A model generated the notes under the pieces. That model was not told where the DNA came from. It did not search any database and was given only the letters and a program-made list of their open reading frames with translations. Shown piece by piece: positions 31,734-53,540 of a stretch of DNA of 64,000 bases. The position numbers were made by a program, and so were the translations under genes. This DNA comes from Gemmatimonadales bacterium (GTDB lineage: Bacteria; Gemmatimonadota; Gemmatimonadetes; Gemmatimonadales; GWC2-71-9), in contig DATIYM010000018.1 of the NCBI GenBank assembly GCA_035517615.1, positions 45,822-109,821 of the forward strand. Direction: 5' to 3'. Numbering within the stretch: position 1 is the stretch's first letter; each line of letters starts with the position of its first letter.

Positions 31734-31737
31734 GGGA

Positions 31738-35028: not shown

Positions 35029-35103
35029 TGGGCGAAGAGGGATTCGAACCCCCGACTTCCTGCGTGTAAGGCAGGCGCTCTGGACCAGCTGAGCTATTCG
35101 CCC
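35029..35103 (-). tRNA. tRNA-Val (anticodon TAC)
   Basis: Hand-folded. Acceptor GGGCGAA/TTCGCCC; D arm GCTC-AGCTGGTCCA-GAGC; anticodon arm CCTGC-CTTACAC-GCAGG; T arm CGGGG-GTTCGAATC-CCCTC region; discriminator A. Confidence 0.9.
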
Positions 35104-36254: not shown

Positions 36255-37114
36255 CAGGGGCGCGGCAGGTCCTGCCCCTTGGCGATCAGCTCGAGCATCT
36301 CCTGACATTTCTTCGCCCATGTGTTGAACTTGTTCGCCTTGAAGCCCTCTTCCCAGGTCCGGCGCGCCGTGTCCTGATTGCCGGCGAACCAGTACGAGCG
36401 GCCCAGCTCGTAATACGCTTCGATCAGGTTCGGTCCGAGCTTCAACGTCTTCTCGAAGAACGTCTGCGCGTCTTCGTACATCTGCCGCTGCAGGTACACG
36501 AGCCCGAGATAGAAATGCGCGTACAGCGTGGCCTTCTTGTCGTTGTCGAGCCGGATCGCCTTCGAGAGATGCTCGATCGCTTCGCCGAAGATCCGCTTCT
36601 TGAGACAGATGTACCCCACATTGATCCGGGCGAGCGAGTTGGCCGGCTCCTTCATCAGCACTTTCTGGAACGTCTGCAGCGCGTCGTCGTATTCCTCGTG
36701 CAGCATCTGCGCCCATCCGAGCAGCGATTCGGCCTGCGTCTCCCCGGGCGACAGCTGCAGCGCGCGCTGGAGCGCCTGGATCGCCCCGGCATGGTCGCCG
36801 AGCGAAATTAGACTCCAGCCTTTTTCGATGAATGTGGAGGCTCCGATGTGATCGGCGTGCACGGCCGGACGCGCGCCGGTGAACTCGGGAGCCGACGCCT
36901 CGGTCGCCGCGGGCGTGAGCTGCTTGTACCGGTCGACCAGCGAGCGCACCGATTCCTTCAACTCCGAGAGCTCCGCGATCATTCCATCGACCTGCTTGAA
37001 ATAGCCGATAATCTCGCGCTTCACCGCTTCGCGCTCGGCGGTGCCGTTGGCGCTGTTGAGCCGCCGCGCGATGGCCTCGTACTCGGCGCGGAGCGCGGGG
37101 AGAGTCGAGTCCAT
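36254..37114 (-). CDS. TPR-repeat protein with an N-terminal coiled coil
   Basis: 286 aa. Several canonical TPRs (A..YLG..Y......A...F.KAL.L.P). 1-nt overlap with the cheW stop. Confidence 0.65.
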   Translation of the reverse strand: MDSTLPALRAEYEAIARRLNSANGTAEREAVKREIIGYFKQVDGMIAELSELKESVRSLVDRYKQLTPAATEASAPEFTGARPAVHADHIGASTFIEKGWSLISLGDHAGAIQALQRALQLSPGETQAESLLGWAQMLHEEYDDALQTFQKVLMKEPANSLARINVGYICLKKRIFGEAIEHLSKAIRLDNDKKATLYAHFYLGLVYLQRQMYEDAQTFFEKTLKLGPNLIEAYYELGRSYWFAGNQDTARRTWEEGFKANKFNTWAKKCQEMLELIAKGQDLPRP

Positions 37115-37632
37115 CAGGACGCCTCCGCGAGCGGACCTGCCGCCGCGAGCACGAGCTGCTCCTGTGAGCTCAACAGCTGTGCCGTGTTGAGCACGATAAT
37201 CGTGCGTCCCTCGCGCGCGATGAGCCCGCCGATGTATTCGGCGGCGAGCCCGCGGACGATCTTCGGCGGCGGCGTGATTTCGTTTGCGCCCAGCTCCAGC
37301 ACTTCCGTGACCGCGTCCACGATCACCCCGATCCGGCCGCCACCCGCCACCGACTCGCCATCGTTGCCGCGGCTCGCGCCCAACTCCCAGTCGAGAATCA
37401 CGGTCCGCGTTTCGTTCTTGACCGGCGCCGGCACTCCGAGCCGCTTCCGGAGATCGATGACCGGCACCACGGTCCCTTGATAGCGGAGCACGCCCTCGAG
37501 AAAGGCAGGCGCCTTGGGCAGCGGCACCGGAGGTTCGTAGCGGAGGATCCGCTCAACGTGAAAGATGTTGAACGCGAAGTCCTGCCCCGCAACCTTGAAC
37601 GAGACGAGCTGGACTTCATCGCCTGTGTTCAT
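37114..37632 (-). CDS. cheW: chemotaxis coupling protein CheW
   Basis: 172 aa. LVSFKVAGQDFAFNIFHVERI...GVLRYQGTVVPVIDLRKRLG...IGVIVDAVTEVL. Confidence 0.85.
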   Translation of the reverse strand: MNTGDEVQLVSFKVAGQDFAFNIFHVERILRYEPPVPLPKAPAFLEGVLRYQGTVVPVIDLRKRLGVPAPVKNETRTVILDWELGASRGNDGESVAGGGRIGVIVDAVTEVLELGANEITPPPKIVRGLAAEYIGGLIAREGRTIIVLNTAQLLSSQEQLVLAAAGPLAEAS

Positions 37633-38054
37633 GCGAACCGCTCCTCCAAAGCCGCGAAATCGAGAATCGGTACGAGTCCCGTCCCCTCCGCGCGATGCGC
37701 CACGCCGCTGGCCCAGGGAAGCGACTCTCCCGGCGGCACCGGGATGGCCCGTACGCGCACCACTTCCTCGGCATCGTCCACTTCGAAAGCGACGTAGCGC
37801 TCCCCCTCACCGATCTGCACCACGACTGTCGTCTGCCCCTGCGCTGCCGGGGGCGTCCGTCCGGCGCCGCCGAGCAGCGCGCCCAGGTGCACGAGCGGCA
37901 CGAGCCGACCGCGCCACGGGGTGAGACCGCGCATCGCATCGAGCGCCCGGGGCACGGACAGCACTTCCGCCCCGTCGTTGACCTCGAGCACCCGCACGAG
38001 CGGCAGGCCATACGGACGGCCTTCCGATCGCACCAGGAGATAGCCCTCGCTCAT
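37629..38054 (-). CDS. CheW-like protein (divergent)
   Basis: 141 aa. [21 protein letters not shown]...[20 protein letters not shown]...[11 protein letters not shown] has CheW topology. ATGA overlaps on both sides. Confidence 0.75.
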
Positions 38055-39145
38055 GGCGGCGCGACGCGTGGGGCTCGCACCAGCTCAACCACGCGTCCGG
38101 CAATGTGTGCCAGCGGCAGCACCGCGTCCGCGCCGCCGCCCTGCGCTGCCGCCACGGGCATGCCAGCGATCACCGACGACTCGCGATCCTGCGCGACGCC
38201 CCTGCCCCCGGCATCATGAATCGCCCGCAGCCCGGCCGCGCCGTCCCGACCCATTCCCGTCAACACGACGCCGACTGCACGGGAACCGAACAGCTCCGCG
38301 ACCGAGCGAAACAGGGGATCGGCGGCCGGGCGAACGCCCCATACCGGAGGGGATTGATCGAGGGCGAGTGCGGGACCGTCGGGCCCTTGGACCACGCGCA
38401 TATGATAATCTCCGGGGGCCACATAGGCGGTGTCCTCCACCACAGGCGCCCCGTGGTCACCCTCAACCACGCGGAGCGGACTCATCGAATCGAGCCGTTC
38501 CGCCAGACTGCGCGTGAATTTGGGCGGCATGTGTTGCGCAATCAGGACCGCCGCCCCAAGGCCGGCAGGCAGTCGGGGAATGAGCTCCGCCAGGGCCCGC
38601 GGCCCGCCCGTCGATGCGGCGATCGCGACGACGGCCCGCGCCCGGGGGCGAAGCTGCATCTCGGCCGGATGACGCACCGCGGCCGGCGGGCGGGCCATCA
38701 CCGAGACGTGCGAGAGGTCGGCGGCCAGCGCGCGCCTCACCGCGGCCACGAGCTCCGGCGCGATGTGCTCGAGCGGCGCCCGGCCGGAATCGGGGGGCTT
38801 GGCGACGATCTCGACGGCACCGAGCTCGAGCGCGCGGATCGCCGCCTGCGTGCCGGGTCCGGCGTGTGCGCTCACGACCACGATGGGGCGCGGGATCTCG
38901 GACATGATGTAGCCGATCGCGGCGAGCCCGTCGAGCTCGGGCATCTCGAGATCCATCGTGATCACGTCCGGCTCGTGCTGATGGACTTTGCGCACCGCGT
39001 CCAGCCCGTCGCGCGCGGTGCCGACGACGTCGAATTCCCCGGAGCCTTGCGGTCCCGCGAGCACGTCCGAAATCACCCGGCGCAGGAATGCGCTGTCGTC
39101 CACCACGAGCACCCGGGCCTTCCGGGCCTGGCGCTCAGATGACAC
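38051..39145 (-). CDS. cheB: protein-glutamate methylesterase/deamidase CheB (REC plus esterase)
   Basis: Trimmed to GTG 39145 ([23 protein letters not shown]). REC Asp in [14 protein letters not shown]. Esterase motifs [22 protein letters not shown]. Confidence 0.85.
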
Positions 39146-39635
39146 GAACGGGACATCCCACGGTACGCACCTCGACGCGGCCGTCCGCCACGAACATGTG
39201 CACCGAGCGGCCCGATCCGCCCCCCACGGCCTCCGCCGTGACCGGGATCGACGCATGGCGCAGCGCCTGCCGGGCCGCGACGATGTTGCGCTCGCCCATC
39301 TGGACCGATCCCGGTTGCATCAGCTGCGCAAACATGCTGGCCCCACCCGCAAGCTTGGCGACGACATGGCGCGGGTCGGCCCCGAGCTCCGCCACTCGTT
39401 CGAGCAGAAACGGCACCGCGGTCTCGGGGAATCGCGCCGGATTCGCGGCGTCGCGCGACAGGCTCCGGGATGGCAGGAGGATGTGCGCCATTGCGCCCAC
39501 TCGAGCCCCCGGATCGTGCAGCATGATTGCGACGCAGGAGCCGAGACCGAGGGTGACGAGCACCGCGTCGCCGCGATCCGCCGCCCATTCCCCCACGCGT
39601 ACCATGTGCTCACGACGCGCATCGGAGCGGTTCAT
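39135..39635 (-). CDS. cheD: chemoreceptor glutamine deamidase CheD
   Basis: Trimmed to ATG 39635 (ATGA with the cheR stop). [12 protein letters not shown]...AHILLP...KLAGGASMF. Confidence 0.85.
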
Positions 39636-40447
39636 TCGAGCCGACGGTAGATCCGCTCCCGCGGCTCCTCCAGCTTGAAGCGCTGCCGGACCTCGCCGAA
39701 CAGCGTCTCGACTTTTCCGAGCACGAGAATGCCGGCGGGAACGAGCGCGTCGGCGAACGCGCCGAACAGCCGCTCCTGGAGCGGCCGCTCGAAGTAGATC
39801 ATCACGTTGCGGCACACGATCAGGTCATACGGCGCCGCGGGCGGCGGCTCGGTCGTGAGATCGTGCCGGCGCACGCGCATCATGGTGCGCAGCCGCTCCA
39901 CGGCCTGGCGGGGCTCTACCGCGCTGAAGTACCGCGCGGCGAGCTCGCCGGGAATTTCTCCGAACGCGCTCGCCGGGAACGCCGCGGATTCCGTGCGCGC
40001 GATACTTTCGCGATCGAGATCCGTGGCATCGATGCGGGGCCGATCGAGCCAGCGTTCCTGTCCCTGGTGCCGCGCGGTCTCGGCGATCGCCACCGCGAGG
40101 CTGTAGGGCTCCTCGCCCGACGCGCAGCCCGCGGACCACACCCGAATCCGTCCTTCCCGCGCGTGCCACAGCTCGCGCAAGTAGACGGCCAGCGCCTCCC
40201 ACGTTTCGGCGTTGCGCCAGAACTTGGTGACATTGATGGTGAGCGTGTCGAGCAGCCGATCGTATTCGGTCGCGTCTTCGTCGAGCAGGCGCGCGTAGGC
40301 ACCGTAGGTATGGACGCCGCGTGCGCGCATGCGCACGGCCAGCCGCCGCCGAAAGCACTTGTGTTTATAGCTCTCGCAGCTGATGCCCCGGGCCAGCGAG
40401 ATCTTGCGGGTCAGCGCGTCGAATTCAGGATCCTGCGATGGAATCAC
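39632..40447 (-). CDS. cheR: chemotaxis protein methyltransferase CheR
   Basis: 271 aa. TINVTKFWRN, RVWSAGCASGEEPYSLA, DLIVCRNVMIYF. Confidence 0.85.
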   Translation of the reverse strand: MIPSQDPEFDALTRKISLARGISCESYKHKCFRRRLAVRMRARGVHTYGAYARLLDEDATEYDRLLDTLTINVTKFWRNAETWEALAVYLRELWHAREGRIRVWSAGCASGEEPYSLAVAIAETARHQGQERWLDRPRIDATDLDRESIARTESAAFPASAFGEIPGELAARYFSAVEPRQAVERLRTMMRVRRHDLTTEPPPAAPYDLIVCRNVMIYFERPLQERLFGAFADALVPAGILVLGKVETLFGEVRQRFKLEEPRERIYRRLE

Positions 40448-42060
40448 GACAGCGCGCTCAGCGTGTCGAGGTTCGCCTTCACGAGCTCATGCTTGGGATT
40501 CAGCTCGAGGGCTCTGCGCCAGAACATGGTGGCGAGGTCCCGGTCGTTCCGCTTGTAGGCGATGTTGCCAAGCTTGAAGTAAACATCGTCGCCCAGGTCG
40601 GGAGCGAGCTCGATGGCGCGGCTGTAGGCTTCCCACGCCTCGTCGTAGCGCGATCCCCGGTACGCGAGATCGCCTTGATTCTTCGAGAGCTGGGGCAGCG
40701 ACGGCTCGCTCTTCTTGGCGGTCTGGATCAATTCCTCGGCTTTTTCCAGATCCCCGGCGAGTTCGTGCAGCACCGCCATGTTGTTCTGCAGCACGGCATG
40801 CGAGGGGTATGCCTCCGCCCCTTCCTCCGCGATCTGATCGGCAAGCTCGAATTCGCCCGCCGAGGCGGCGGCGAGCCCGCGTGCCCAAAACCACACCGGC
40901 GGCGGCACGCCCTGGAACAGCTCGCGCGCGCGATCGAGCCGTCCGGCCGCGCTCGCGAAATCCCCCTGTTTCAGCGCGATGATTCCCCACCCGAGGAACG
41001 TGCGCGGATCGTTCTTCCCGCGCGCCGCGGCCTCGCTGTACGCCGCCTCCGCGTCGGGGAGCCGGCCGAGCTGCTCGTACGCGAGCGCGAGATTGTGCAG
41101 CACCGCGGGCTTGCCGCCGCCTTTCTCCGCGGCGAGCCGCAGCGCGTCCATCGCTTCCCGCCAGCGCGCCTGACGCAACCCCACCAGCCCGAGATAGAAA
41201 TGCGCGTGCGCATCGCCGGGCCGGAGCTCCGTCACCCGGCGGAACTCCCGCGCCGCCTCGTCGAGCATTCCCGTCTTGTAGAACGCGATGCCGAGATTGC
41301 GATGCTCCTCGACCCGCGCCTCCGTGAGCTGGGCATCATCGGACGGGGCGGTGCGTCCCGCCCGGTGCAGAAACCCCGCCGTAATGAGCCCGTACAGCGC
41401 CTTCCCGATCTCGAACTCGCCCAGCCCAGAATCTTCGATGATCTGGTTCACGTCCCGCGTGCCGTCGAGCAGCGGGAGAATTCGCTGCTGCGCGTCGGTC
41501 AGCTTTGCGTCGGAAATCGCGAGCCGGTCTTTGTCCACGATGAAAATCAGATCGAACGCCGGAATCTTCTTCTCGATCAGGCTCCATTCGTCCACGCGGC
41601 GCGCGCCTTCGAGCAGCAGCGACTCGGGATTGATGGAAACCAGGAAATCCTGCCGGTCGGCACGTACGTCGGCCTCGAAGTTGAACGTCCCCTGCGTCCA
41701 CGTGAACAGGTAATAGACGGATTCCTCGATCTGCACGCGCATATAACGCTCGAGATCGTCCTGGGTGATGACGTTCTGGCTGACGAGAATCTGCCCGAGC
41801 TTCTTGTCGCGCTGCTTGGATTGTCGATGGATGCCGGCGTCGAGCTGTTCCTGCGTGATCTTGCCGTGCTTGACGAGGATGTCGCCGAGGCGGTCGCGGC
41901 GGTTGACGATGGAGGCGTAGGAGATCCGCCCCTTCTCGAAGTAGATGTAGCCGAAGTTGGCCCGGTCGGCGATCGAGAGACACCCGGTCTTCTGCCCCAG
42001 CGAGAGCAGCTGCAGGACGTCCGGGAGCGAGGCCTCCTTGAGCGAACCCTTGATGGCCAC
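40444..42060 (-). CDS. DUF4388/PATAN-domain protein with tandem MshEN-like (T2SSE_N) motifs and C-terminal TPRs
   Basis: 538 aa. N-terminus GSLKEASLPDVLQLLSLGQKTGCLSI...GYIYFEKGRISYA is the DUF4388 signature. Then RLGDILVKHGKITQEQLDAGIHRQ-SKQRDK-KLGQILVSQNVITQDDLERYMRVQ, followed by TPRs. The GTG start directly abuts the upstream TAG. Confidence 0.7.
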   Translation of the reverse strand: MAIKGSLKEASLPDVLQLLSLGQKTGCLSIADRANFGYIYFEKGRISYASIVNRRDRLGDILVKHGKITQEQLDAGIHRQSKQRDKKLGQILVSQNVITQDDLERYMRVQIEESVYYLFTWTQGTFNFEADVRADRQDFLVSINPESLLLEGARRVDEWSLIEKKIPAFDLIFIVDKDRLAISDAKLTDAQQRILPLLDGTRDVNQIIEDSGLGEFEIGKALYGLITAGFLHRAGRTAPSDDAQLTEARVEEHRNLGIAFYKTGMLDEAAREFRRVTELRPGDAHAHFYLGLVGLRQARWREAMDALRLAAEKGGGKPAVLHNLALAYEQLGRLPDAEAAYSEAAARGKNDPRTFLGWGIIALKQGDFASAAGRLDRARELFQGVPPPVWFWARGLAAASAGEFELADQIAEEGAEAYPSHAVLQNNMAVLHELAGDLEKAEELIQTAKKSEPSLPQLSKNQGDLAYRGSRYDEAWEAYSRAIELAPDLGDDVYFKLGNIAYKRNDRDLATMFWRRALELNPKHELVKANLDTLSALS

Positions 42061-44004
42061 CTAGTGCAGCTCCTCGATCAATCGATCCGCGGGCGCCGGC
42101 CAGTCCCACACCATTTTTTCGCGGCTGCGGATGCCGCCGAGGCTCGAGACCACGAGCCCGCTCGTCCGGAGCGCGCCGCTCTTCCGATTGGGTTCGCGCT
42201 CGTGCCCCTCGAGCACCGCGCGCGCGAGCCCCACCGAGACGGACTGGTCCTGCGCGGCCGCCGCTCCGATCACGCGCTGCAGCAGTCCCTGCAGACCCCG
42301 CACCGAGTCCACCGGCCGGTCGGCTAAATACTCGAGCAGCGCCGAATCGCGATTCAACTGGTGCGTAACGAAGAGCCGCTCGAGCATCGCGCGACGGATT
42401 TCCCGGTCCGGCTCCATGATCTCGGCCACGAGTCCGCCTCCGAGGCGCGAGATCAGCCGTGCCTCCATTCCAGTGAGCTTGCTGGGATGCACCGGCGCGG
42501 TGAACAGGAGCTGACGTTCCTGATCGAGAAACAGATTGAACAGATTGAACAGCTCTTCCTGTGTCCGATCCTTCCCGGCGACGAGGTGGATGTCGTCGAG
42601 CAGCAGAGCGGTCGCGCGGCGGTAGCGTGCGCGCCACCACTCCACGCGATTCCCATTGATGGATGTGATCAATTCGTCGATGAACGTCTGCGTGGACAGG
42701 CACGCGACGACGGCGCCTGGCTGCTTGGCCAGCTCGAGTCCGACGCCGTGCAGGAGATGCGTTTTCCCCGACCCGCTCTTTCCGATGAACACGAGCGGGT
42801 TATACCGCTTGCCCGGTTGCTCGAGCACGGCGCGCGCGGCCGTGACCGCAACCTGATTCGCCGCCCCGGTGGCGTAATTCGCGAGCGGGAACGCGGCCGA
42901 TGGACCGTGCGGCGGCGCCGAACCGACGAGCACCTGCGACGCGGCCGCTTCCGCTTCGGTCATCCGCTCGGGATCGCGGAACAGGCTCTGGCCCGCGGCC
43001 TGCGGATCGAGCGCCGCCACCTCGTTCTCCAGGGTCCGGAGCCGCTCGACGTCGCGGGCAAATGCCGCGATCTCCGCATCGACCGCCGGCGGGGTGTCGC
43101 GCTCGAGCAGGACCTCGAGTCGATGGGTCCGGTAGCCCTCGCCCTCCCAGCGCAGGATGGCCTCGGCCACGCGAGCGCGCCATGCCTCCACGGCCTTCCC
43201 GACGGTGGCAGTCACGTCATCGAGGAACGATCCAAACTCGTCCGCCGAGCCCGCGACGCGAGCGGCCGCCGGCGGCGCCACCGCTCTCTCGAGTCCGAGC
43301 AGTTGCTTCGCGCCCTCCGCGTTGAGGGGCGTGTCGTTCACCGCCTGGTAGGCGACCATGCGGTTCAACGCGCCCATCAGCTCGCGCACGTTCGGGAATT
43401 CGGCCGTCGCCACCGTTTCGAGCACGCCGGGCTGGAAGTTCGCGCCCCGTTCCTCGGACTTGCGGCGCAGGATCGCTACGCGGGTCTCGTAATCGGGGAC
43501 GCCGATGTCGACCACCAGGCCCCCCGAGAACCGCGAGATGAGCCGCTCGTCGAGATCAGCGATCTCGGCCGGAGGGCGATCGCTCGTCAGCACGATCTGG
43601 TGGCCGCCGGACTGCAGCGCTTCGATCAGCCGCAGCAGCTCCGCCTGCATCTCCTTGCGGTTCGTGAGGAACTGCACATCGTCGATCAGCAGCACGTCGA
43701 CGTTCTGAAACCGGCGGCGAAACGCGTCTCCTTGCCCCGCCGCCACGGCGGCGTGGAACGCCTCGACGTATTCGTCCAGGCTCAGGTACTCGATGTTCAG
43801 ATTCGGAAACAGCTTCTTCGCGCTTTGTCCGATCGCCATCAACAGGTGTGTCTTGCCGAGGCCCGAGACGCTGTAGACGAACAGCGGGTTGTAAACCGTT
43901 CCCGGATTCTCGGCCACGGCGCGTCCCGCCGTTACCGCCAGGCGGTTGGCCGCGCCGACCACGCATGTCTCGAACGACAGCCGGGGATTGAGCGCCGTGG
44001 TCAT
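42061..44004 (-). CDS. tandem DnaA-type AAA+ ATPase (two domain-III modules; no domain I or domain IV)
   Basis: 647 aa. Module 1 (aa ~10-225): [91 protein letters not shown]. Module 2 (aa ~372-600): [86 protein letters not shown] overlap with the mglA stop. Confidence 0.75.
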
Positions 44005-44600: not shown

Positions 44601-44603
44601 GTG

Positions 44604-45418: not shown

Positions 45419-46302
45419 GCCTGTCGCTCCAGCCAGCGGGCGGCAACCTGTGCCGCGCGCTGCGCGATGATCGCGAGCCGCCCCATGGGCACCGCGCGAT
45501 CGCGGATGATCAGCAGCAACGTTTGCGCGCTCGGTTGGGCCAGATGGACGTGTCCGCTCACACCTTCGGCGGCAAGACCGGTCCAGGTGCCGAGCCCTAC
45601 GAGCTTCGCGGTCCGGGCGGCTTCCTGTGACACGCCGGCCAGGTACGCCGCCACGGGAGCGGTGACGTCGTTTCCCGAGCCATCCCGCAATGCGCCGCCC
45701 AGCACCTGGCCCGAGCCGTCGAGCAGCAGCAATCCTTCCTGCGCGCCCTCGAGCCCCGCGAATACGCGCTGCTCGTCGAGTGGACCAGACGACGCGGCCG
45801 GAGCCGGCGGCGGCGTCGGCGCCGGTGCGGCAGAGCTCGGGGGCGCCGGAGCGGCGGGCACGGCAGCGCTCTCGAATCCCAGTCCCGCCGCCGCCGCCCC
45901 CGCATCGCCGCCCTGCACCATGGCCACGGCCTGCGCGATGGTGGGATCGCTCGGCGAGTGGCGTTGCGCCGCCTCGAGGTGCGCGGCGGCCTGCTCCACG
46001 TCACCGACCTTGAAATACAGAAACGCGAGTCCTTTCAGCGCGCCCACGTGCGTGGGCGCGATCCGGAGCGTCATGTCCCATTCGTCGAACGCGCGCTCGA
46101 AATCGCGCTTGTCGGCCAGGATCCGCGCGTAGAGGTCGTGCGCATCCGCGAGATGCGGGTGCCTCTCGAGCCCCGAGAGAGCCACCCGATGCGCCGCATC
46201 GAGCTGGCCCTTGTGGCGCAGCAGCTCGCCCAAGCGCAGGAACACGAGACTCGTGGGGTCCTGGGCGAGCTGCGCGGACAACGACTTCACGTCCTCAGCC
46301 AT
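45415..46302 (-). CDS. TPR - Pro/Ala linker - Roadblock/LC7 fusion protein
   Basis: ATG 46302 (MAEDVKSL) overlaps the upstream stop by 8 nt. N-terminal TPRs, then a linker AVPAAPAPPSSAAPAPTPPPAPAASS. The C-terminus GLLLLDGSGQVLGG...LLLIIRDRAVPMGRLAII is Roadblock-like. Confidence 0.65.
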   Translation of the reverse strand: MAEDVKSLSAQLAQDPTSLVFLRLGELLRHKGQLDAAHRVALSGLERHPHLADAHDLYARILADKRDFERAFDEWDMTLRIAPTHVGALKGLAFLYFKVGDVEQAAAHLEAAQRHSPSDPTIAQAVAMVQGGDAGAAAAGLGFESAAVPAAPAPPSSAAPAPTPPPAPAASSGPLDEQRVFAGLEGAQEGLLLLDGSGQVLGGALRDGSGNDVTAPVAAYLAGVSQEAARTAKLVGLGTWTGLAAEGVSGHVHLAQPSAQTLLLIIRDRAVPMGRLAIIAQRAAQVAARWLERQA

Positions 46303-47452
46303 GCTGCACCCCCGCACGGCCCAAGGTCAGCGCCGCGGCTTTCGCCTGCTGAACTTCTTCGACGCGAGCCGCCTCCGCGGGGCCATGCGGCGTGAGCCGT
46401 TCCCAATGCTCCCATTGTTCGACGGCTTCACCGAAGCGGCCGATCGCCGCGAGCGCGTGCCCCAGCAGGCGGTGCGCCGCCGCGAGCCGTGGGTCGAGCC
46501 GCACCCCCTGCCGCAGCGCCGTCACGGCCTCCGCCGGCCGTCCCGCCGCGAGCTGGACGCGGCCCAGCAGCAGGTGAATCGCCGCATTCTCGGGGTGCGC
46601 AGCGGCCGCCTGCTCGGCGGCCGCCCGCGCCTCCTGGTGGTCATGGCGTGCCAGCGCCGCCTCGGTGCCCGCCAAGAGCTCCGCGAGCTCGGCGGCCGAC
46701 CCGCCTCCCGGGCGCTCGCGCGCCGCCGCCCCGGGATCGATGAGCAGAATCACGCCGGCGCTCTCGAGTCCGAACAGCGTCTTCGCGACGTCGAAATCCG
46801 AGCGGCCGAGCTGCCGCGCGATGGTGCGCACGTCACGCGTCGAGTCGATCATCGCCAGGACTTCCCATTCCGCCGGAAGCAGATCGAGCGCCGGGCTGGT
46901 GCCCGACGACAGCGCCGCCAGATGCGGCACGACGCCGACGTGCGGAACGCGCTTCTCGATCCGCGACCATTCGTCGATGCGGCGCGCGCCCTCCATGAGG
47001 AGCGCCTCGGTTCGAATCCGCACCACGGCGCGCATCGCCACGTCCGGCCCCGGCTCTTCGCTGAACGAGAAGAACCCCTCGTTCCAGCTCATGACTTCGA
47101 ACACGACTTCCTCGATCTGAAAGCGCACCTGGCGCTCCACGTCGCGCGGCGTGACCGCGCCCATCTCCACGAGGATTTCGCCCAGTCGGCGCGCGTCGCC
47201 TTTCGTCTGCAGCTCGCGCGCGCGCTCGAGGTCCGATTCGGTGATCTTGCCGGTGCGGACGAGCAGTGTGCCGATCTGGTGCGGGTTGCTCCGCATCTCG
47301 GCGAACACCACCGCGCCTTCGTCGAAGTAGATCTTGCCGTCGTTCAACCGCAGATCCGACGTGACGCGCAGCACGCCCGTCTTCCGGCTCAGGTCGAGCA
47401 GCTGGAAGACGTCGTGAATCCCGAGCTCGCGTAGCGGTCCTTCGATCGGCAT
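46295..47452 (-). CDS. DUF4388/PATAN-domain protein with tandem MshEN-like motifs and C-terminal TPRs (paralog of 40444..42060)
   Basis: 385 aa. GPLRELGIHDVFQLLDLSRKTGVLRV...GKIYFDEGAVVFA, then QIGTLLVRTGKITESDLERARELQ-TKGDAR-RLGEILVEMGAVTPRDVERQVRFQ, then Ala-rich TPRs. Confidence 0.7.
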   Translation of the reverse strand: MPIEGPLRELGIHDVFQLLDLSRKTGVLRVTSDLRLNDGKIYFDEGAVVFAEMRSNPHQIGTLLVRTGKITESDLERARELQTKGDARRLGEILVEMGAVTPRDVERQVRFQIEEVVFEVMSWNEGFFSFSEEPGPDVAMRAVVRIRTEALLMEGARRIDEWSRIEKRVPHVGVVPHLAALSSGTSPALDLLPAEWEVLAMIDSTRDVRTIARQLGRSDFDVAKTLFGLESAGVILLIDPGAAARERPGGGSAAELAELLAGTEAALARHDHQEARAAAEQAAAAHPENAAIHLLLGRVQLAAGRPAEAVTALRQGVRLDPRLAAAHRLLGHALAAIGRFGEAVEQWEHWERLTPHGPAEAARVEEVQQAKAAALTLGRAGVQHG

Positions 47453-47455
47453 GCG

Positions 47456-50146
47456 TCAGGCCGCTTCCGAGGTGAAGATGTGCGCCAGGTCGAGCGCGGT
47501 ACGCGCGTGCGCCCGGGCACGCTGCGCGTAGGGGCCGCTGGGATCGAGCCGCGTCACTTTCTCCCACGCCTCGACGGCCTCCGCGTAGCGATGCGCCAGC
47601 GCGAGGGCGACGCCCAGCTGGAACCACGCCTCGACGTGCTCGGCGTCGAACTTGAGCACGCGGCGGAACGCCTCGCGCGCCGCCTCGGCCCGCTTGTCGT
47701 CCAACAGCGCCCGACCCAGCAGCAGCAGCGCCTTCAAATCGTACGGGTCGTCCTCGAGCATGCTCGCGAGGCGCGCGATTGCCTCCCGCAGCCGCCCGAT
47801 GCGGCGCAACAGATCGGCGCGGGCGAGCGCCGCCTCGTAAAATGTCGGCAGGACGTCCAGCGCCCGATCGTACGACCGCTCGGCCTCGCCCCAGTCCTCG
47901 CGCTGCTCGTGCAGCCGGCCCAGCTCGAGCCACACCTGCCCGTATCCCGGATCGAGCTCGAGCGCGGCGCGATAGGCGGCGAGCGCGCCCGTCCGATCTC
48001 CCACCTTCGCGGCGACATCGCCTTGCAGCTTGCGGAGGTCGGCGCGCTGGGGCGCGCGGGTCTGCGCCCGTCCCAGCACCGTGAGCGCGCCGGCGGCATC
48101 GCCACCCGCGGCCCGGCCCTTGGCGACCACGACCAGCGCCTCCACGTCGTCCGGCGTGCGCTCGAGCAGCTGCTCCGCGAGCCCCCGCGCTTCTTCGTCG
48201 CGTCCCAGGCTGAACAGCGCTTTCACCTCGCCGAGCAACGCGTCGCTGCGCGCGCCGTTTGTCGACCGCGCTTCGCGATAGCGCTCGAGCGCCTCGCCGT
48301 GCAGCCCGCGCCGCGCGAAGATCTCGCCCAGGAGCACCGAGGCATCGACGGGATCAGCGCCGCGCTGCACGGCGCGCACGGCCTCGGCGGCCGCGAGATC
48401 CATCAATCCCTTGCTCACGTAGTCGCGCGCGAGCTCGAGCGGGTCGTCCGCGCTCCGCGGGGGCTCAGGCCCGGCCGGCGCAGGCTCGAGCTCCTGGAAG
48501 ATGTTGTCCAGGAGTCGCTGATCGAACGAGAAGTCCTCGCCCAGGGCTTCGGTCTGCACGTCGGCCGAGATTTCGGGAGCGATGCCGATGGTCGTCTTCT
48601 CGAACTGCAAATCGATGCTCAACGCGAACTTCTGCGAGACGTAATACGGATCGATCTCGAGTGCGCGCTTCGTCGCGCGCAACGCGCCCTCGAAGTCGCC
48701 GAGATTCGAGAGCGTGAAGCTCAGGTTGTAGTGCGCGCCCGCGTGCGCCGGGTCGGCTTCCACCGCGCGCACGAAGGCGTTGCGCGCGTCGGTGAACCGC
48801 TTCATCTCGACGAGCACGAGCCCGACGCCATTCCACGCCGGCGCCGATCCCGGCTGATCGGCGAGCATCTGCCGGTACGCTTCGAGCGACAGCTGAAAGC
48901 GCCGCAGCTGGTACAGGAGCAGGGCGAGATTGAGCCGCGCCGCGGCGAATCCGCGCTCGAGCTGCAGCGCTTTGCGAAATGCCTCGATCGCCTGTTCGGT
49001 ATCCGATTGGTGCGTGAGCACCACGCCCAGGTTGTTCCATGCGAGCGCGTAGCGCGCATCGATGTCCACGGCCTGGCGATAGGAGGTGAGCGCGTCGGCC
49101 ATGCGGCCGGCCTGGTGCAGCACGACGCCGTGTTCGTTCCACAGCTTGGGGGAATCGGGAATCTCGCGCAGCAGGGTTTCGTACAGTTCGAGCGCGGCCC
49201 CGAGATCGCGCTTCAGCAGATGCACCTCGGCCATCGCCTGCAGCGTGAGCCGCCGATCCTCGCCGCGGTCCAGCGCGAGGCGATATTCGCGCAGCGCCTC
49301 GTTGTAATAGCCCTTCTGCCGGAACGCGAGCCCGAGGTTGTAGTGCGCCAGCTCCTTGCTCTCGGCCAGCCCCGGCTCCGGAGCGTTCTGCTGGCGCAGC
49401 GCGTCGCTCTTACGCTCGGCGTTGTAGCGCTCGAGCGAGAGATTGGTCTGCGCGCGGGCCAGCGGCGGGTTGAGCTCGATGGCGCGCTTCGATGCCACGC
49501 GCGCGTCCTGGTGCCGCCCCAGGTCGCCCAGGACGAACGCCATCAGGTAGTGCACGTTCGCGTTGTCGGGATTGAGACTCACGGCGCGCTCGAGCGCCGC
49601 GAGTGCGTCGCCGTTCAGCCCGCGGGCGTAATAGACCTCTGCGAGATAGAAATGCACCACGCTCGACTCGGGATCGAGCTCGCAGGCGCGCTGAAACCAG
49701 TCGGTGGCCACATCCATCCGCCCGCGGTTCTTCTCGGCCAGCCCGAGCTGAATGATGGCGGCGACGTCGTCGGGCCGGCGTGCGAGCAGCTCCTCGAACT
49801 CTCCCGCCGCGTCCTCGTGCTGCCCGAGAATCGCGTACGCGCGCCCGAGCTCCCAGCGTGCGTCGCGGTCGTCCGGTGAATGGCGCAGCCGCTCGCCCAG
49901 CTCAGCCACGCGGCGGTCGTAGAACCCCGTGTCATTATGGGCGATCTCGAGGTTGCGCTGAGCGACCTGCATTTTGGGATCGAGCTCGAGCGCGCGCGTG
50001 AATTCCGCGATGGCTTCCGGAACGAGCCCCTTGCGGTAATAGAGGACCCCGAGGTTGTTATGCGCCCCGGCGTCCGACGGATCGATCCGGCGGGCAAACG
50101 ATCGGAGGGCGGCGAGGTCGCGTTCGGAGAGCGCCGGCGCCGTCAT
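47456..50146 (-). CDS. large TPR-repeat protein (896 aa)
   Basis: TPR consensus (W..LG..Y...G....A...Y..AL.LDP) recurs end to end, roughly 20 repeats by eye. No signal peptide or TM segment noticed. Confidence 0.75.
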   Translation of the reverse strand: MTAPALSERDLAALRSFARRIDPSDAGAHNNLGVLYYRKGLVPEAIAEFTRALELDPKMQVAQRNLEIAHNDTGFYDRRVAELGERLRHSPDDRDARWELGRAYAILGQHEDAAGEFEELLARRPDDVAAIIQLGLAEKNRGRMDVATDWFQRACELDPESSVVHFYLAEVYYARGLNGDALAALERAVSLNPDNANVHYLMAFVLGDLGRHQDARVASKRAIELNPPLARAQTNLSLERYNAERKSDALRQQNAPEPGLAESKELAHYNLGLAFRQKGYYNEALREYRLALDRGEDRRLTLQAMAEVHLLKRDLGAALELYETLLREIPDSPKLWNEHGVVLHQAGRMADALTSYRQAVDIDARYALAWNNLGVVLTHQSDTEQAIEAFRKALQLERGFAAARLNLALLLYQLRRFQLSLEAYRQMLADQPGSAPAWNGVGLVLVEMKRFTDARNAFVRAVEADPAHAGAHYNLSFTLSNLGDFEGALRATKRALEIDPYYVSQKFALSIDLQFEKTTIGIAPEISADVQTEALGEDFSFDQRLLDNIFQELEPAPAGPEPPRSADDPLELARDYVSKGLMDLAAAEAVRAVQRGADPVDASVLLGEIFARRGLHGEALERYREARSTNGARSDALLGEVKALFSLGRDEEARGLAEQLLERTPDDVEALVVVAKGRAAGGDAAGALTVLGRAQTRAPQRADLRKLQGDVAAKVGDRTGALAAYRAALELDPGYGQVWLELGRLHEQREDWGEAERSYDRALDVLPTFYEAALARADLLRRIGRLREAIARLASMLEDDPYDLKALLLLGRALLDDKRAEAAREAFRRVLKFDAEHVEAWFQLGVALALAHRYAEAVEAWEKVTRLDPSGPYAQRARAHARTALDLAHIFTSEAA

Positions 50147-50150
50147 GGGA

Positions 50151-50771
50151 TCAGGTCACGCGAATGGCGTCGAAGATCGCCTTAAGAGACGCGAGATCCG
50201 GCAGGAGCAGGAAGTGGCCCCGCAGCCCCTCACCGTTGTCGAACCGGAATTCCGTTTCGACGCAGAAAATGAAATCGCGCTCGTGACCGAAATTGAGATA
50301 GGCCGTCGTGAGGACCGCGCCCGCCACATCGATGACGAGACTCGGCACCGACGGCAGGAGCAGCATGCCCATGAACTCGGAGAGCGCGTTCATGTAGGCG
50401 CCCGCGAGAATATTCCCGGCTTCCTTGAGGCAGGATTGCTCGAGCGTCTCGTAGCTTGCGGTCTGGCCCTTCGGCCGGCGCAGCAGCATGTCGCACAGCC
50501 GCCGGCCGACCGCTTCCGGCAACACGAGCAGCGTTCTCCCGGTGAGATCGCCCAGCATGTGCATGAGCACCGCTGCCACTACCGCCTGCGAATCACCCAA
50601 CAGCTCGGGCACGTCCTCGAGCCGTGTGATGATGATGCGCGGAACCGTGATCATGATGCGCCGATCCGTCATCTGGGACAGCGCGGTCGCTGCGTGCCCC
50701 GCCCCGATGTTCGCCACCTCGCGCAGCGCATCGATCTGCAGCGCTTTCAATTCGCGGACGTCCTGCATCAC
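50151..50771 (-). CDS. cheC: CheY-P phosphatase CheC
   Basis: 206 aa. Both phosphatase motifs ([DS]xxxExxN) are present: DALREVAN and SCLKEAGN. Confidence 0.8.
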   Translation of the reverse strand: MMQDVRELKALQIDALREVANIGAGHAATALSQMTDRRIMITVPRIIITRLEDVPELLGDSQAVVAAVLMHMLGDLTGRTLLVLPEAVGRRLCDMLLRRPKGQTASYETLEQSCLKEAGNILAGAYMNALSEFMGMLLLPSVPSLVIDVAGAVLTTAYLNFGHERDFIFCVETEFRFDNGEGLRGHFLLLPDLASLKAIFDAIRVT

Positions 50772-50785
50772 GTAGGCCGCCCTTC

Positions 50786-52711
50786 CTAGACGAGGCCGCC
50801 GGCGTCGAGAATCAAGGCCGGCACGCCGTCGCCCATGATGGTCGCGCCACTGAAGAGGGGCAGCGTACCCCGGGGCGCATCGAATCCCTTCACCACGATC
50901 TCCTGTTGTCCCAGCATGCTGTCGACTACGAGCCCGGCGCGCCGCTCCCCCATTTCGAGCACGATGATCGGCCGTCGGGGCGGCACGTCGCCATCACCCA
51001 CGGCAAGCAGACGGCGCAGGTGCACGAGCGGCACCACGCGATCGCGCAGCACGATCGCCTCGCGCCCTTCGAGGGTCGTGGTCGGCGCGCTCCCGAGCTC
51101 GATCGTCTCCGAGACGTACGTCAACGGCAGCGCATACCGCTCGCGACCCACGCTCGCGATGAGCGCCCGCACGATGGCGAGCGTGACGGGAAGCCGCAGA
51201 ACGAACGTCGTTCCCCGCCCCTCATCCGAGCGCACTTCGACGCTGCCGCCGAGTGCACGCAGCCGCGTGACGGCGACGTCGATGCCCACGCCCCGGCCGG
51301 AAACGGCGGTGACCGACTCGGTCGTCGTGAACCCCGGCCGCGCGATGATCCGCAGCAGCTGGTCGTCGGTGAGGTTCTCGGCATGCGGGTCGACCAATCC
51401 CTCGCGTTTGGCACGCTCGAGCACCTTGCGGCGGGGAATGCCGCGGCCGTCATCCGAAATCGTGATGATCACGCTCGAGCGCTCGCGCACCGCCGCGAGC
51501 ACGATCTCGCCCTCGGGCTTCTTGCCGGCGCGCCGCCGCTCTTCCGGCGGCTCGATCCCGTGGTCCACCGCGTTGCGGAGCATGTGCACGAGCGGATCGC
51601 CCAGCTCGTCCAGGATCGTGCGGTCCAGCTCGATCTCTTTTCCCTCGACGCGGAACTGCACCTGCTTGCCGAGCTGGCGCGCACTGTCGCGCACCAGCCG
51701 GGGAAACCGGTCGAACACCTGCCACACGGGCGTGAGACGAGCCTGAATGATTTGATCCTGCAGATCACGCGAGAGGCGCGCGACGCCGAGGGCGATGTCG
51801 TCGATCGCCGGGTCGCGGCGCGCCACCGCCAGCTCGTTCAACCGTCCACGCACGATCACGAGCTCGCCGATCAGATCCATCAACGCGTCGAGGCGGCGCA
51901 GGTCGACCCGCAGATGCCGCGCGCGTCCCGCCTCGCTCCCCGGCGCCGCCGTCTGAGATTCGGGTCGCGGCGCCGCGGGCTCGTCCGCGGCCACGTCGAC
52001 GGATTCCACGTCGCCCGCCCGTTCGATTGCCTGCACGACGTCCGCGATGGACGCGGGCGTTTCGAGACGGAAGGCAAAGTGCCCGTCGAAATCTTCGGAT
52101 TCGAACGTTTCGGTCGGCGGTGAGACGGCCCGCACCGTACCGAGCGCGCCCGCATAACGCAGCGCGATCAGCGCCCGGCCACCCTTGAGCGGCGCCGTTT
52201 CGCGCAGCGCGACGCGCACGAGACGCCCGGCGGGCTTGAGGGTCCGCGCTGGTTCTGGTACGCGCGGACTCGGGTCCGCATCTGGCGTGCCGCTTCCCGC
52301 TTCGCGCTTCCCCTTCTCCTCTCCCCCTTTCCCCTTTCCCGACGCGAGGGCGAGGTCGCGCAGCACGGCATCGAGGTCCGCGTCTCGCTCGCGACCGGCA
52401 ACCGCGAGCCCGATGCTCGATTCGAGCGCATCGACCGCGCGGAACAGGAGCTGGAGCACTTCGGGACTGACGGGGGCGGCGCTGCTGCGAATCCCATCCA
52501 GCAGGCTTTCCGCCGTATGCGCGAGCTCGGCCACACGCGCGTATCCCATCGTGGCCGCCATGCCTTTGACCGTATGCATCGCGCGGAAGATGCCGCTCAC
52601 CGGGTCACGCGCCGACGGATCACGCTCGAGCGCGAGCAGCAGCTCGTTGCAGGCGCTCACATGCTCCCGGCTCTCCGCCAGGAACAGGTCCGCGTACTGC
52701 GAAAGATCCAT
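50786..52711 (-). CDS. cheA: chemotaxis histidine kinase CheA
   Basis: 641 aa. HPt FRAMHTVKGMAATMGY, dimerisation domain, HATPase motifs (HMLRNAVDHGIE, DDGRGI, GRGVGIDV) and a C-terminal CheW-like P5. The linker after P1 is encoded by a heptamer array. Confidence 0.9.
   Translation of the reverse strand: MDLSQYADLFLAESREHVSACNELLLALERDPSARDPVSGIFRAMHTVKGMAATMGYARVAELAHTAESLLDGIRSSAAPVSPEVLQLLFRAVDALESSIGLAVAGRERDADLDAVLRDLALASGKGKGGEEKGKREAGSGTPDADPSPRVPEPARTLKPAGRLVRVALRETAPLKGGRALIALRYAGALGTVRAVSPPTETFESEDFDGHFAFRLETPASIADVVQAIERAGDVESVDVAADEPAAPRPESQTAAPGSEAGRARHLRVDLRRLDALMDLIGELVIVRGRLNELAVARRDPAIDDIALGVARLSRDLQDQIIQARLTPVWQVFDRFPRLVRDSARQLGKQVQFRVEGKEIELDRTILDELGDPLVHMLRNAVDHGIEPPEERRRAGKKPEGEIVLAAVRERSSVIITISDDGRGIPRRKVLERAKREGLVDPHAENLTDDQLLRIIARPGFTTTESVTAVSGRGVGIDVAVTRLRALGGSVEVRSDEGRGTTFVLRLPVTLAIVRALIASVGRERYALPLTYVSETIELGSAPTTTLEGREAIVLRDRVVPLVHLRRLLAVGDGDVPPRRPIIVLEMGERRAGLVVDSMLGQQEIVVKGFDAPRGTLPLFSGATIMGDGVPALILDAGGLV
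52285..52340 (-). repeat. heptamer array on the cheA sense strand (GGGAAAG GGGAAAG GGGGAGA GGAGAAG GGGAAGC GCGAAGC GGGAAGC GGCACGC)
   Basis: Read directly. It encodes SGKGKGGEEKGKREAGSGT in the P1-P2 linker of CheA. Confidence 0.8.
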
Positions 52712-52712
52712 G

Positions 52713-53075
52713 TTAGCCGAGCACTCGCTGCACCGCTTCGAGCACCCGTGAAGGTTGGAACGGCTTGACGACGAAGTCCTTGGCGCCGGCCTGAATCGCC
52801 TCGACGACGAGCGCCTGCTGGCCCATGGCGCTGCACATCAGAATCTTGGCGTCGGGATCCTGGCGGACGATTTCGCGCACCGCGTCGATGCCGCCCATAT
52901 CCGGCATGACAATATCCATGGTGACCAGATCGGGTCGGAGCTGGCGGTATTTCTCCACCGCCTGCGCGCCCGTCTCCGCTTCACCAACCACCTCGAACCC
53001 GGCCTGAGCCAGGATATCGCTGATCATCGTCCGCATGAAGATCGCGTCATCGCAGACGAGGACAGTGTGATTCAC
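52713..53075 (-). CDS. cheY: chemotaxis response regulator CheY
   Basis: 120 aa single REC domain. VLVCDDAIFMR, LVTMDIVMPDMGG, conserved Lys in KDFVVKPF. Confidence 0.9.
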   Translation of the reverse strand: MNHTVLVCDDAIFMRTMISDILAQAGFEVVGEAETGAQAVEKYRQLRPDLVTMDIVMPDMGGIDAVREIVRQDPDAKILMCSAMGQQALVVEAIQAGAKDFVVKPFQPSRVLEAVQRVLG

Positions 53076-53084
53076 ACACCCTCC

Positions 53085-53540
53085 CTAGGATGCGAAAACA
53101 GGACCGAGAAGCGCGTCGGTGTCGAGGACGATGAAGAGTCGTCCATCGCGCCGGCCGACCGCCTGGACGAGGGTGGGATCGACCCCGGGCAGAGCCTGCC
53201 GAGGCTCGAGGGCATCTCCACCCACCGCGAGAAGGTCGACCACTTCATCCACCGTGAAACCCACGAGGCGGCGGGCGGGCGCGACGCCGAGCTCGAACAA
53301 CATGGTCGTCGCGGCATCCGTGGATCCGGCGGCGGCCGGCTGGCCCAGGGCCCGCCAACCATCTATCACCGTGATCAGGTTGCCCCGGACATTGACTAGC
53401 CCCCGCACCACCTCCGGTGCACCCGGAATTCGTGTTGCTGGGAACTGCGGCAGGATCTCTCGGACCAGGTCGGCGGGTGCCGCGCAGGCCAACTCGCCCA
53501 CCCGGAAAACGAGCAATCGGACCACCCCGCCGTCACTCAT
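53085..53540 (-). CDS. CheW-like coupling protein
   Basis: Trimmed to ATG 53540, an 8-nt overlap with the rluD stop. LLVFRVGELACAAPADLVREI...GLVNVRGNLITVIDG...VGFTVDEVVDL. Confidence 0.75.
   Translation of the reverse strand: MSDGGVVRLLVFRVGELACAAPADLVREILPQFPATRIPGAPEVVRGLVNVRGNLITVIDGWRALGQPAAAGSTDAATTMLFELGVAPARRLVGFTVDEVVDLLAVGGDALEPRQALPGVDPTLVQAVGRRDGRLFIVLDTDALLGPVFAS

Follow-up and report, generated by a model that had tools for sequence, protein, structure and literature searches.

Why should a bacterium keep a chemotaxis-type phosphorelay and a cell-polarity GTPase within a single run of genes? The question is raised by a contig of a Gemmatimonadales bacterium (GenBank assembly GCA_035517615.1, contig DATIYM010000018.1), of which a stretch of 64,000 nucleotides (contig positions 45,822 to 109,821), here called the window, was analyzed. 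Nineteen minus-strand genes are packed into one tight block at window positions 35361-53540, and in this block che genes stand on both sides of the genes for an MglA GTPase and its putative partners. We consider it about an even chance that the block is one operon coupling a CheA-CheY pathway to an MglA/MglB polarity switch, most likely for type IV pili.

Gene content and packing of the block

The first part of the block, read along the minus strand, is cheW-cheY-cheA-cheC. The middle part encodes a large tetratricopeptide repeat (TPR) protein (TPR896), a PATAN-TPR protein, a TPR-Roadblock protein, a Roadblock protein, MglB, MglA, a tandem ATPase named here AAA2 and a second PATAN-TPR protein. 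The last part is cheR-cheD-cheB-cheW-cheW, after which come TPR286 and an HExxH membrane peptidase. This gene list had been proposed in an earlier annotation of the same DNA (the original prediction), and it was borne out by Pfam and by an independent gene caller run on the source contig (ENA ERZ27256617 k141_3003692, 120,945 bp), both of which reproduced the domain calls of the 19 genes. The genes, and the tRNA gene beyond the last of them, are as follows.

53085-53540, minus strand: cheW, first gene of the block (Pfam CheW, E = 8e-25; identical call on the source contig)
52713-53075, minus strand: cheY, single-domain response regulator (Pfam Response_reg, E = 1.6e-31)
50786-52711, minus strand: cheA, with Hpt, P2, dimerisation, HATPase and CheW domains (Pfam)
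50151-50768, minus strand: cheC, CheY-P phosphatase (Pfam CheC; PDB 1xkr, E = 2e-28)
47456-50146, minus strand: TPR896, an 896-aa all-TPR protein (Pfam TPR families)
46295-47452, minus strand: first PATAN(DUF4388)-TPR protein (Pfam DUF4388, E = 2.8e-32)
45415-46302, minus strand: TPR-Roadblock protein (Pfam TPR; Robl_LC7 18.6 bits, cut-off 23; hhalign)
45071-45418, minus strand: Roadblock/LC7 protein of 115 aa (Pfam Robl_LC7 28.9 bits, cut-off 23)
44604-45074, minus strand: mglB, Roadblock fold, putative GTPase-activating protein (GAP) for MglA (Pfam Robl_LC7 30.2 bits; PDB MglB chains)
44001-44600, minus strand: mglA, group-1 Ras-like GTPase (PDB 5ymx, 6h17, 3t12)
42061-44004, minus strand: AAA2, tandem DnaA-domain-III AAA+ protein of 647 aa (Pfam Bac_DnaA twice)
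40444-42060, minus strand: second PATAN(DUF4388)-TPR protein (Pfam DUF4388, E = 1e-39)
39632-40447, minus strand: cheR methyltransferase (Pfam CheR and CheR_N)
39135-39635, minus strand: cheD deamidase (Pfam CheD)
38051-39112, alternative GTG start at 39145, minus strand: cheB methylesterase with REC and CheB_methylest domains (Pfam; NCBIfam CheB 355 bits, above cut-off)
37629-38054, minus strand: cheW, second copy (Pfam CheW, E = 2.5e-17)
37114-37632, minus strand: cheW, third copy (Pfam CheW, E = 2.6e-30)
36254-37114, minus strand: TPR286, a 286-aa TPR protein (Pfam TPR)
35361-36254, minus strand: HExxH (Peptidase_MA_2) membrane protein, last gene of the block (Pfam Peptidase_MA_2, E = 2e-10)
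35029-35103, minus strand: tRNA-Val(TAC), in the 371-nt gap that ends the block (ARAGORN)

The junctions between these genes range from -8 to +22 nt with the starts of the gene caller. With the alternative cheB and cheC starts of the original prediction they range from -11 to +14 nt, so its description of tight, coupled packing was reproduced. Genes overlap or abut at 12 of the 18 internal junctions, in ATGA, GTGA or TGATG arrangements, and this packing probably reflects translational coupling. Scans for promoters and terminators were uninformative: against shuffled sequence, five terminator-like sites were observed inside the block (8.0 +/- 2.7 expected) and a single promoter-like site (1.3 expected), neither number being above chance. 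At the 5' boundary the stop codon of rluD overlaps the start of the first cheW by 8 nt, and the transcript may therefore begin further upstream in this genome; the 3' boundary is the gap with tRNA-Val. No gene for a methyl-accepting chemotaxis protein (MCP), the chemoreceptor, was found among the 19 genes, either by Pfam or in the independent gene calls. Taken with the conservation described below, the block is best read as a predicted single transcription unit conserved in Gemmatimonadota.

Conservation of the block in Gemmatimonadota

The linkage of che genes and mglA could have been peculiar to one lineage, and a comparison of gene neighbourhoods had been set beforehand as the test. One genome per species (GTDB) was scanned with an alignment of AAA2 (profile A3); at least 600 stretches matched and 570 encode a relative. 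The best 80 of at least 570 loci were kept, which are the closest ones and do not include the cultured Gemmatimonas genomes, and the window proteins were mapped onto them by tblastn. All 80 loci are collinear with the window. The whole span from the first cheW to the HExxH gene is present in 36 of them, over 17.6-18.5 kb in all but one (15.9 kb), and 46 contain both che halves together with mglA. In none of these 46 loci, which reach both sides, do the che genes lie apart from the mglA block. The linkage is thus not an accident, and the original prediction withstands the test that it had set itself. Sequence identity to the window proteins over the loci is 45-74% for AAA2, 72-92% for MglA and 83-96% for CheY, and 62-83% for TPR286 in orthologous clusters. 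The least conserved gene is the second cheW, which was undetected in 7 of the 36 full-span clusters.

By their labels, 78 of the 80 loci come from Gemmatimonadota, and many belong to series of metagenome-assembled genomes (MAGs) that we take, from the series names, to be derived from soil. Where a source is given for close AAA2 homologues, the label reads Gemmatimonadales or Gemmatimonadetes, and the named members of ten divergent AAA2 clusters are all Gemmatimonadota. Two loci of more divergent Gemmatimonadota show how the order varies. In one (L090) it is MglB-MglA-AAA2-PATAN-cheR-cheD-cheB, an AAA_22 ATPase, a long CheW, cheW, TPR and HExxH. In the other (L092), which is not beside the dcw division and cell-wall cluster, it is TPR-PATAN-TPR/Roadblock-Roadblock-MglB-MglA-AAA2-PATAN-cheR-cheB-cheW-HExxH. 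The HExxH gene thus stands at the cluster end in both.

The two remaining loci, L015 and L059, are found in MAGs labelled Myxococcales and Solirubrobacterales, respectively, and they carry a Gemmatimonadales cluster at 73% and 54% AAA2 identity. These labels are probably due to binning contamination in the public assemblies.

MglA, MglB and the Roadblock proteins

The GTPase matches the MglA structures 5ymx, 6h17 and 3t12 at E = 1e-69 to 1e-72, and is 57% identical to Myxococcus xanthus MglA (PDB 5ymx, E = 3.5e-72). It contains the motifs GPGRSGKT, TDRT with the arginine finger, and TVPGQ. Features that define group-1 MglA have been established (Wuichet and Sogaard-Andersen 2014; PMC4316618), and the window protein has each of them. 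Its G3 motif is YTVPGQ (TVPGQ and not DxxGQ), aligned to that of M. xanthus MglA; the arginine finger lies in TDRTLFFDF, next to the G2 threonine, and aligns identically with M. xanthus and Thermus thermophilus MglA; and mglB ends 3 nt before the start of mglA. Judged by these features, it is a genuine group-1 MglA.

The assignment of MglB is based on PDB MglB chains 6izw_B and 6h5b_B (E = 2-4e-8, C-terminal helix included) and on the Roadblock fold, which scores 30.2 bits against a Pfam cut-off of 23; the NCBIfam MglB equivalog model gives 40 bits against a cut-off of 200. Its GAP activity toward MglA is thus putative. The 115-aa protein matches the Roadblock protein of PDB 7f8m (E = 6e-4). 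The C-terminal domain of the TPR-Roadblock protein is under the Pfam cut-off of 23 (Robl_LC7, 18.6 bits), and in a profile-profile comparison with the orthologues of the 115-aa Roadblock protein it matches them with 93% probability (hhalign, E = 2.9e-7). With this match, three Roadblock-type domains are predicted to be encoded in the block. In Myxococcus several Roadblock proteins, MglB and MglC, serve polarity (PMC4719450).

PATAN, TPR and HExxH proteins

Both PATAN-TPR proteins contain a PATAN domain (PF14332) with an alpha-helical insert (E = 2.8e-32 and 1e-39), and both exceed the cut-off of 38 bits of the NCBIfam model NF053729, with 44.5 bits for the first protein and 54.3 for the second. 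Repeats of the MshEN type lie in this insert in both proteins. The MshEN domain carries a tandem 24-residue motif, RLGxx(L/V/I)(L/V/I)xxG(L/V/I)(L/V/I)xxxxLxxxLxxQ. The first protein has one such motif, RLGEILVEMGAVTPRDVERQVRFQ, at residue 89, which is kept in 56 of 66 orthologues, and the second has tandem motifs at residues 57 and 87, which are also conserved in orthologues. Both PATAN-TPR proteins may thus bind cyclic di-GMP (c-di-GMP). Wang et al. (2016) do not mention PATAN. Neither protein ends in a receiver (REC) domain; there was no Pfam Response_reg hit, and TPR repeats are found in its place.

The names that NCBIfam offers for the TPR proteins (PilW, Tgl, GltE, MamA and others) were not used, the matches being generic repeat matches, below cut-off or non-specific. 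The HExxH protein has a HELAH motif and, by its sequence, an N-terminal signal-like segment and a C-terminal transmembrane helix. After this helix (window 35361-35480) most orthologues keep a cytoplasmic tail RRRRD..ALDEGW, and one subgroup has the tail LLDELEI.E instead.

AAA2, a tandem ATPase related to DnaA

The ATPase gene lies between mglA and the second PATAN gene. The two halves of AAA2 are 35% identical to each other and both match Bac_DnaA (Pfam), so that the protein is DnaA domain III duplicated within one chain. Domain III of Bacillus subtilis DnaA shares 44% identity with the N half, which superposes on it with a template modelling (TM) score of 0.95 and a root-mean-square deviation of 1.3 Å. 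Walker A, Walker B and the box VII arginines are retained by both halves across the family, and sensor II is retained by the N half. The halves are joined by a helical domain of roughly 110 residues (about 256-361), which is also conserved. The AlphaFold2 model has a mean predicted local distance difference test score of 82.7; the relative placement of the two modules in it is unreliable (predicted TM score 0.46). In a fold search the model matched DnaA only and, for the arrangement of two modules, proteins of the p97 type, which superposed poorly.

AAA2 is distinct from both DnaA and Hda. DnaA domains I and IV (PF08299) are absent, Pfam giving hits to Bac_DnaA domain III only, and the alignment of TIGR00362 to AAA2 spans profile positions 102-335 only. 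Hda is a single domain of about 230 aa, whereas AAA2 has 647 aa and two AAA+ modules, and the Hda model matches residues 374-599 only, with 165.7 bits against a cut-off of 194.8. Moreover, no clamp-binding motif of the QL[SP]LPL type was seen on reading the N terminus of AAA2. A profile of divergent AAA2 members (A4) retrieved mostly ordinary DnaA below the first 30 matches or so. The AAA2 family has no described counterpart.

The protein ends in a tail, EK.VW[DE]WP....R.IE[ED].R (window 42061-42170 and orthologues), which follows a low-confidence linker and is kept in essentially all orthologues, even at 45% overall identity. Its acidic IEE-type end is reminiscent of the EEVD-type TPR ligands of chaperones, and the tail may serve one of the TPR proteins as a ligand. 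A "DWP" ligand motif shared between the tails of AAA2 and of the HExxH protein was considered and rejected, as it is kept in AAA2 and not in the HExxH orthologues.

Arrangements without MglA and the origin of the module

Which of these genes belong together can be judged from lineages in which some are missing. On two contigs outside the phylum, from Candidatus Cloacimonetes bacterium 4572_55 (FCB group) and from assembly GCA_964404765.1 (L088 and L091), the order is cheW-cheY-cheA-AAA_22-long cheW-cheC-TPR(810-826 aa)-PATAN(241-251 aa)-AAA2(687-705 aa), and no genes for MglA, MglB, Roadblock proteins or CheR, CheD and CheB were found at that locus. The CheY of these contigs is 67% identical to that of the window. 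Homologues of TPR896 adjoin AAA2 homologues in both contigs, in L092 and in a Gemmatimonadetes MAG (GCA_003697105.1, L089).

In this last MAG a paralogous pair, a TPR896-like protein of 867 aa and an AAA2-like protein of 697 aa (7373-12094), adjoins two bactofilin genes and then several genes that have no Pfam hit, with no che or mglA gene. This pair, standing without che or mglA, suggests that TPR and AAA2 form a module in its own right.

From the MglA-free contigs and the lone pair we conclude that TPR, PATAN and AAA2 belong with the che genes, and that the GTPase and Roadblock genes were added to them. The oldest recurring unit is a large TPR protein with AAA2, usually in the company of che genes and PATAN; the MglA/MglB/Roadblock set seems to have joined later, within Gemmatimonadota. 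The original prediction had described a che operon split by an MglA module. It was right that che genes flank the GTPase block, but the TPR, PATAN and AAA2 genes, counted there with the inserted module, accompany che genes elsewhere without MglA.

In other lineages the che part also includes a pair of genes for an AAA_22-type ATPase (266-272 aa) and a long CheW-domain protein (284-343 aa), found at 3743-5493 in L088, 7074-8902 in L090 and 4339-6011 in L091. In L090 the pair occupies the place of the second cheW of the window.

The Che proteins

CheY is 65% identical to Thermotoga maritima CheY (PDB 1tmy) over 117 residues (E = 6e-51). CheA aligns over its full length to Escherichia coli CheA (6s1k), and its P3-P5 part to the CheA chain 1b3q; Pfam finds only the Hpt, P2, dimerisation, HATPase and CheW domains, with no fused receiver domain. 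CheC matches the structure of T. maritima CheC (PDB 1xkr, E = 2e-28), and the best NCBIfam models for CheC and CheD are CheC_Thtogales and CheD_Thtga, both matched below their equivalog cut-offs. A CheA with a P2 domain, together with CheC and CheD (Pfam, NCBIfam), is the combination of the Thermotoga/Bacillus type (class F1-like). By similarity, then, these proteins appear to be Thermotoga/Bacillus-like and not orthologues of the Myxococcus Frz proteins. The original prediction had compared the block with the Frz paradigm, an analogy that is functional at most.

Proposed function

The steps of the pathway that we propose, like its output, are deduced from the gene content, gene order, and conservation of genes and motifs that were observed. 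Receptors encoded elsewhere would control CheA, and CheC, CheD, CheR and CheB would provide signal termination and adaptation. Phosphorylated CheY would not have the flagellar motor as its only target, but would act in trans on the co-encoded PATAN-TPR and Roadblock proteins. CheY and the PATAN-TPR proteins would thus correspond to the cyanobacterial PATAN-REC regulators divided into separate proteins; in Synechocystis such regulators bind the pilus motor PilB1 and determine in which direction the cells move (PMC9090330). The PATAN-TPR and Roadblock proteins would in turn determine, via MglB and the two extra Roadblock proteins, which nucleotide MglA carries or at which pole it sits, and MglA-GTP would decide at which pole a motility machine, most probably type IV pili, is active. 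There is a precedent in Myxococcus, where Frz acts on MglA/MglB via response regulators and several Roadblock proteins are involved. A second input may come from c-di-GMP through the MshEN-type inserts of the two PATAN proteins, and TPR896 and AAA2 could form an ATP-dependent scaffold older than the connection to MglA.

A bolder version of this proposal, which we hold only tentatively and regard as rather unlikely, is that AAA2 and its TPR/PATAN partners are a new chemosensory output device. An ATP-driven oligomeric switch recruited from the replication initiator would then allow phosphorylated CheY and c-di-GMP to control a Ras-like GTPase, and hence the pole. If true, this would be an undescribed class of Che-to-GTPase pathway, possibly linked to the nucleoid or the cell cycle.

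Several observations weigh against the coupling of the che genes to MglA and pili. No pilus, gliding or flagellar genes are present in the 64-kb window, and no RomR/RomX-type partners were seen. The likeness of CheY to the motor-binding CheY of T. maritima includes the alpha4-beta5-alpha5 face, and CheC and CheD are a flagellar-type accessory set, so that the che half may be a plain flagellar chemotaxis pathway in flagellated members. In the sister lineage the che, TPR, PATAN and AAA2 genes occur without MglA, from which it follows that the accessory module has a role independent of MglA.

The alternative that survives best is that the block is an ordinary flagellar chemotaxis operon and that TPR896, PATAN, AAA2, MglA, MglB and the Roadblock proteins are a co-transcribed system for the polar placement of the array or flagellum, and not the output of CheY. 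The similarities of CheY, CheC and CheD to Thermotogales proteins and the standard CheA with P2 are what it would predict. So is the company that TPR-PATAN-AAA2 keeps with che genes where MglA is absent, and the extra CheW copies, with the AAA_22 ATPase and long CheW of relatives, could point to functions in array architecture. Other bacteria have array and flagellum placement systems, such as ParC/ParP and FlhF/FlhG; however, we know of none with MglA, Roadblock, PATAN or DnaA-type proteins. The window itself contains no flagellar gene.

The distribution of flagella bears on both sides. Gemmatimonas strains in culture have flagella and express both che and fli genes (PMC9862903, PMC10581226). 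However, in a survey of roughly 400 or more Gemmatimonadota MAGs, flagellar genes were limited to one or two soil genomes, and type IV pilus genes turned up in all environments but the marine one (PMC10581226), whereas the cluster is present in every locus that we fetched, many of them soil-looking. The statement on flagella concerns a set of MAGs other than the fetched loci, which is a further point against coupling to pili. Given the rarity of flagella in that survey and the soil-looking carriers, most carriers probably do not have a purely flagellar output. On balance we judge the flagellar alternative to be improbable overall, though a serious competitor, and a pathway from CheA-CheY to the MglA/MglB switch remains our preferred reading.

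Genomic surroundings

The neighbours of the block were considered for what they may say about its role. Upstream, on the same strand (53533-63846), are genes for FtsH, CdaA (c-di-AMP synthase) and DivIVA, ileS, a gene for a DksA/TraR-type zinc-finger protein, lspA and rluD. The order divIVA-ileS-lspA-rluD resembles that of Firmicutes. The FtsH open reading frame (ORF; 62569-63846) looks truncated at its N terminus, the AAA profile beginning at position 29 at residue 1, which could come from a frameshift or an assembly error. Downstream lie the following features.

33193-34989, minus strand: gene for a 598-aa TPR protein, between the che/mglA block and dcw, flanked by tRNA-Val and tRNA-Asp
33015-33090, minus strand: tRNA-Asp(GTC) (ARAGORN)
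16305-32797, minus strand: complete dcw division and cell-wall cluster

The 598-aa TPR gene is kept at the same place in close relatives. The dcw order is rsmH, ftsL-like, ftsI, murE, murF, mraY, murD, ftsW, murG, murC, ftsQ, ftsA and ftsZ, with an M23 peptidase gene after them; in the window, no mraZ was noticed ahead of rsmH. Four further sizeable minus-strand ORFs (367, 423, 376 and 602 aa), at window 2318-4689, 9206-10336 and about 13785-15593, have no Pfam hit.

These surroundings would fit a chemosensory-like pathway for the cell cycle, division or budding polarity, in which AAA2 addresses DnaA or the nucleoid and MglA marks the growing or budding pole. Gemmatimonas is reportedly budding, and the block stands directly upstream of dcw in all of the closest relatives and downstream of rluD, which in the window follows divIVA, ileS and lspA, in most. 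The resemblance of the AAA2 N half to DnaA domain III, with its ATPase motifs, and the paralogous TPR/AAA2 pair beside bactofilin genes may be read in the same sense. However, L092 and the sister lineage retain the cluster at places away from dcw; AAA2 is devoid of DnaA domains I and IV and of a recognizable clamp-binding motif; and the full adaptation set of CheR, CheB and CheD is more typical of taxis. Adjacency to dcw was consequently downgraded as a functional clue, the divergent clusters not being beside it, and we consider a role in the cell cycle quite unlikely.

It is just as doubtful that the che and mglA/PATAN operons are mere neighbours, co-expressed and functionally uncoupled, frozen in a housekeeping region, for although conserved superoperons of unrelated functions exist and this is a highly syntenic stretch of the core genome (ileS-lspA-rluD to dcw), the che genes flank the GTPase block with overlapping stop and start codons, the arrangement survives relocation from dcw (L092) and divergence to 45% identity, and TPR-PATAN-AAA2 is linked to che genes in another phylum-level lineage with different flanks.

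Comparison with known systems

The block resembles several known systems in part. To the che operon of Thermotoga and Bacillus it is similar in having the same set of CheA, CheW, CheY, CheC, CheD, CheR and CheB proteins, with high similarity. It differs in that eight non-che genes are interleaved and two appended, that there are three cheW genes, and that no receptor or flagellar genes are found nearby in the window. In the DnaA/Hda/DnaC/IstB clade, AAA2 shares the fold and motifs of DnaA domain III in both halves, but it has two copies per chain, a helical linker domain and a conserved C-terminal tail, is without domains I and IV, and is encoded in a signalling operon and not at a replication locus.

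Actinobacterial conservons (CvnA-D) likewise join a histidine kinase, an MglB-type Roadblock protein and an MglA-family GTPase in an operon (PMC4316618, PMC13343842). However, they consist of four genes with a membrane sensor kinase and a group-2 MglA, and include no Che, PATAN or AAA+ proteins. The cyanobacterial Tax/Pix systems (PixG, PixE and TaxP, which bind PilB1) also combine genes for a CheA-like kinase, a CheY-type receiver and PATAN, and they serve to choose the pole for type IV pili. There PATAN is fused to a receiver, whereas here it is fused to TPR and CheY is separate; moreover, MglA/MglB and an AAA+ protein are present here, and the block has no photoreceptor or MCP.

A further parallel is Myxococcus, with Frz and MglA/MglB/RomR/MglC. 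A CheA-type pathway, a group-1 MglA, an MglB of the Roadblock fold and more than one Roadblock protein are common to both, and Myxococcus also has TPR effectors of MglA (SgmX), a further likeness to the block. The features of Frz itself are missing from the 19 genes, among which there is no CheA-CheY fusion or FrzE-type receiver on CheA, no FrzCD receptor or other MCP, no dual-receiver protein and no FrzZ/FrzX. CheC and CheD, on the other hand, are encoded, and the block adds the PATAN-TPR proteins and the tandem DnaA-type ATPase; RomR/RomX were not seen. The genes for Frz and mglBA are unlinked in Myxococcus (PMC4316618), while here the che and mglBA genes form one block, so that the contrast drawn in the original prediction holds. 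The same paper places mglA away from its signalling partners in both Myxococcus and Bdellovibrio.

The original prediction had not recognized this architecture as a described system. In agreement, no published description was found, most subscription papers lying outside the literature searched, apart from a supplementary table of PMC4316618 that lists Gemmatimonas aurantiaca GAU_1409 as 'PATAN>MglA>-PATAN>' and GAU_1115 as 'MglB>MglA>'; its main text states that mglA genes of groups 1 and 5 are occasionally near PATAN genes. What is known already is the chemosensory control of an MglA switch, and what is new is the AAA2 component family, a family of DnaA paralogues that apparently works outside replication.

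Since the genes are scattered in Myxococcus, it took genetics to trace the link from Frz to MglA/MglB there. In the present block the proposed wiring is written in one predicted operon, which suggests that sensing and the choice of cell pole are wired together, and it is kept across a whole phylum that is poorly studied and abundant in soil. The block thus provides a first handle on the control of motility and polarity in Gemmatimonadota, and a candidate parts list for signalling from a phosphorelay to a small GTPase: extra Roadblock proteins, PATAN-TPR adaptors with c-di-GMP motifs, a large TPR protein and a double ATPase derived from DnaA.

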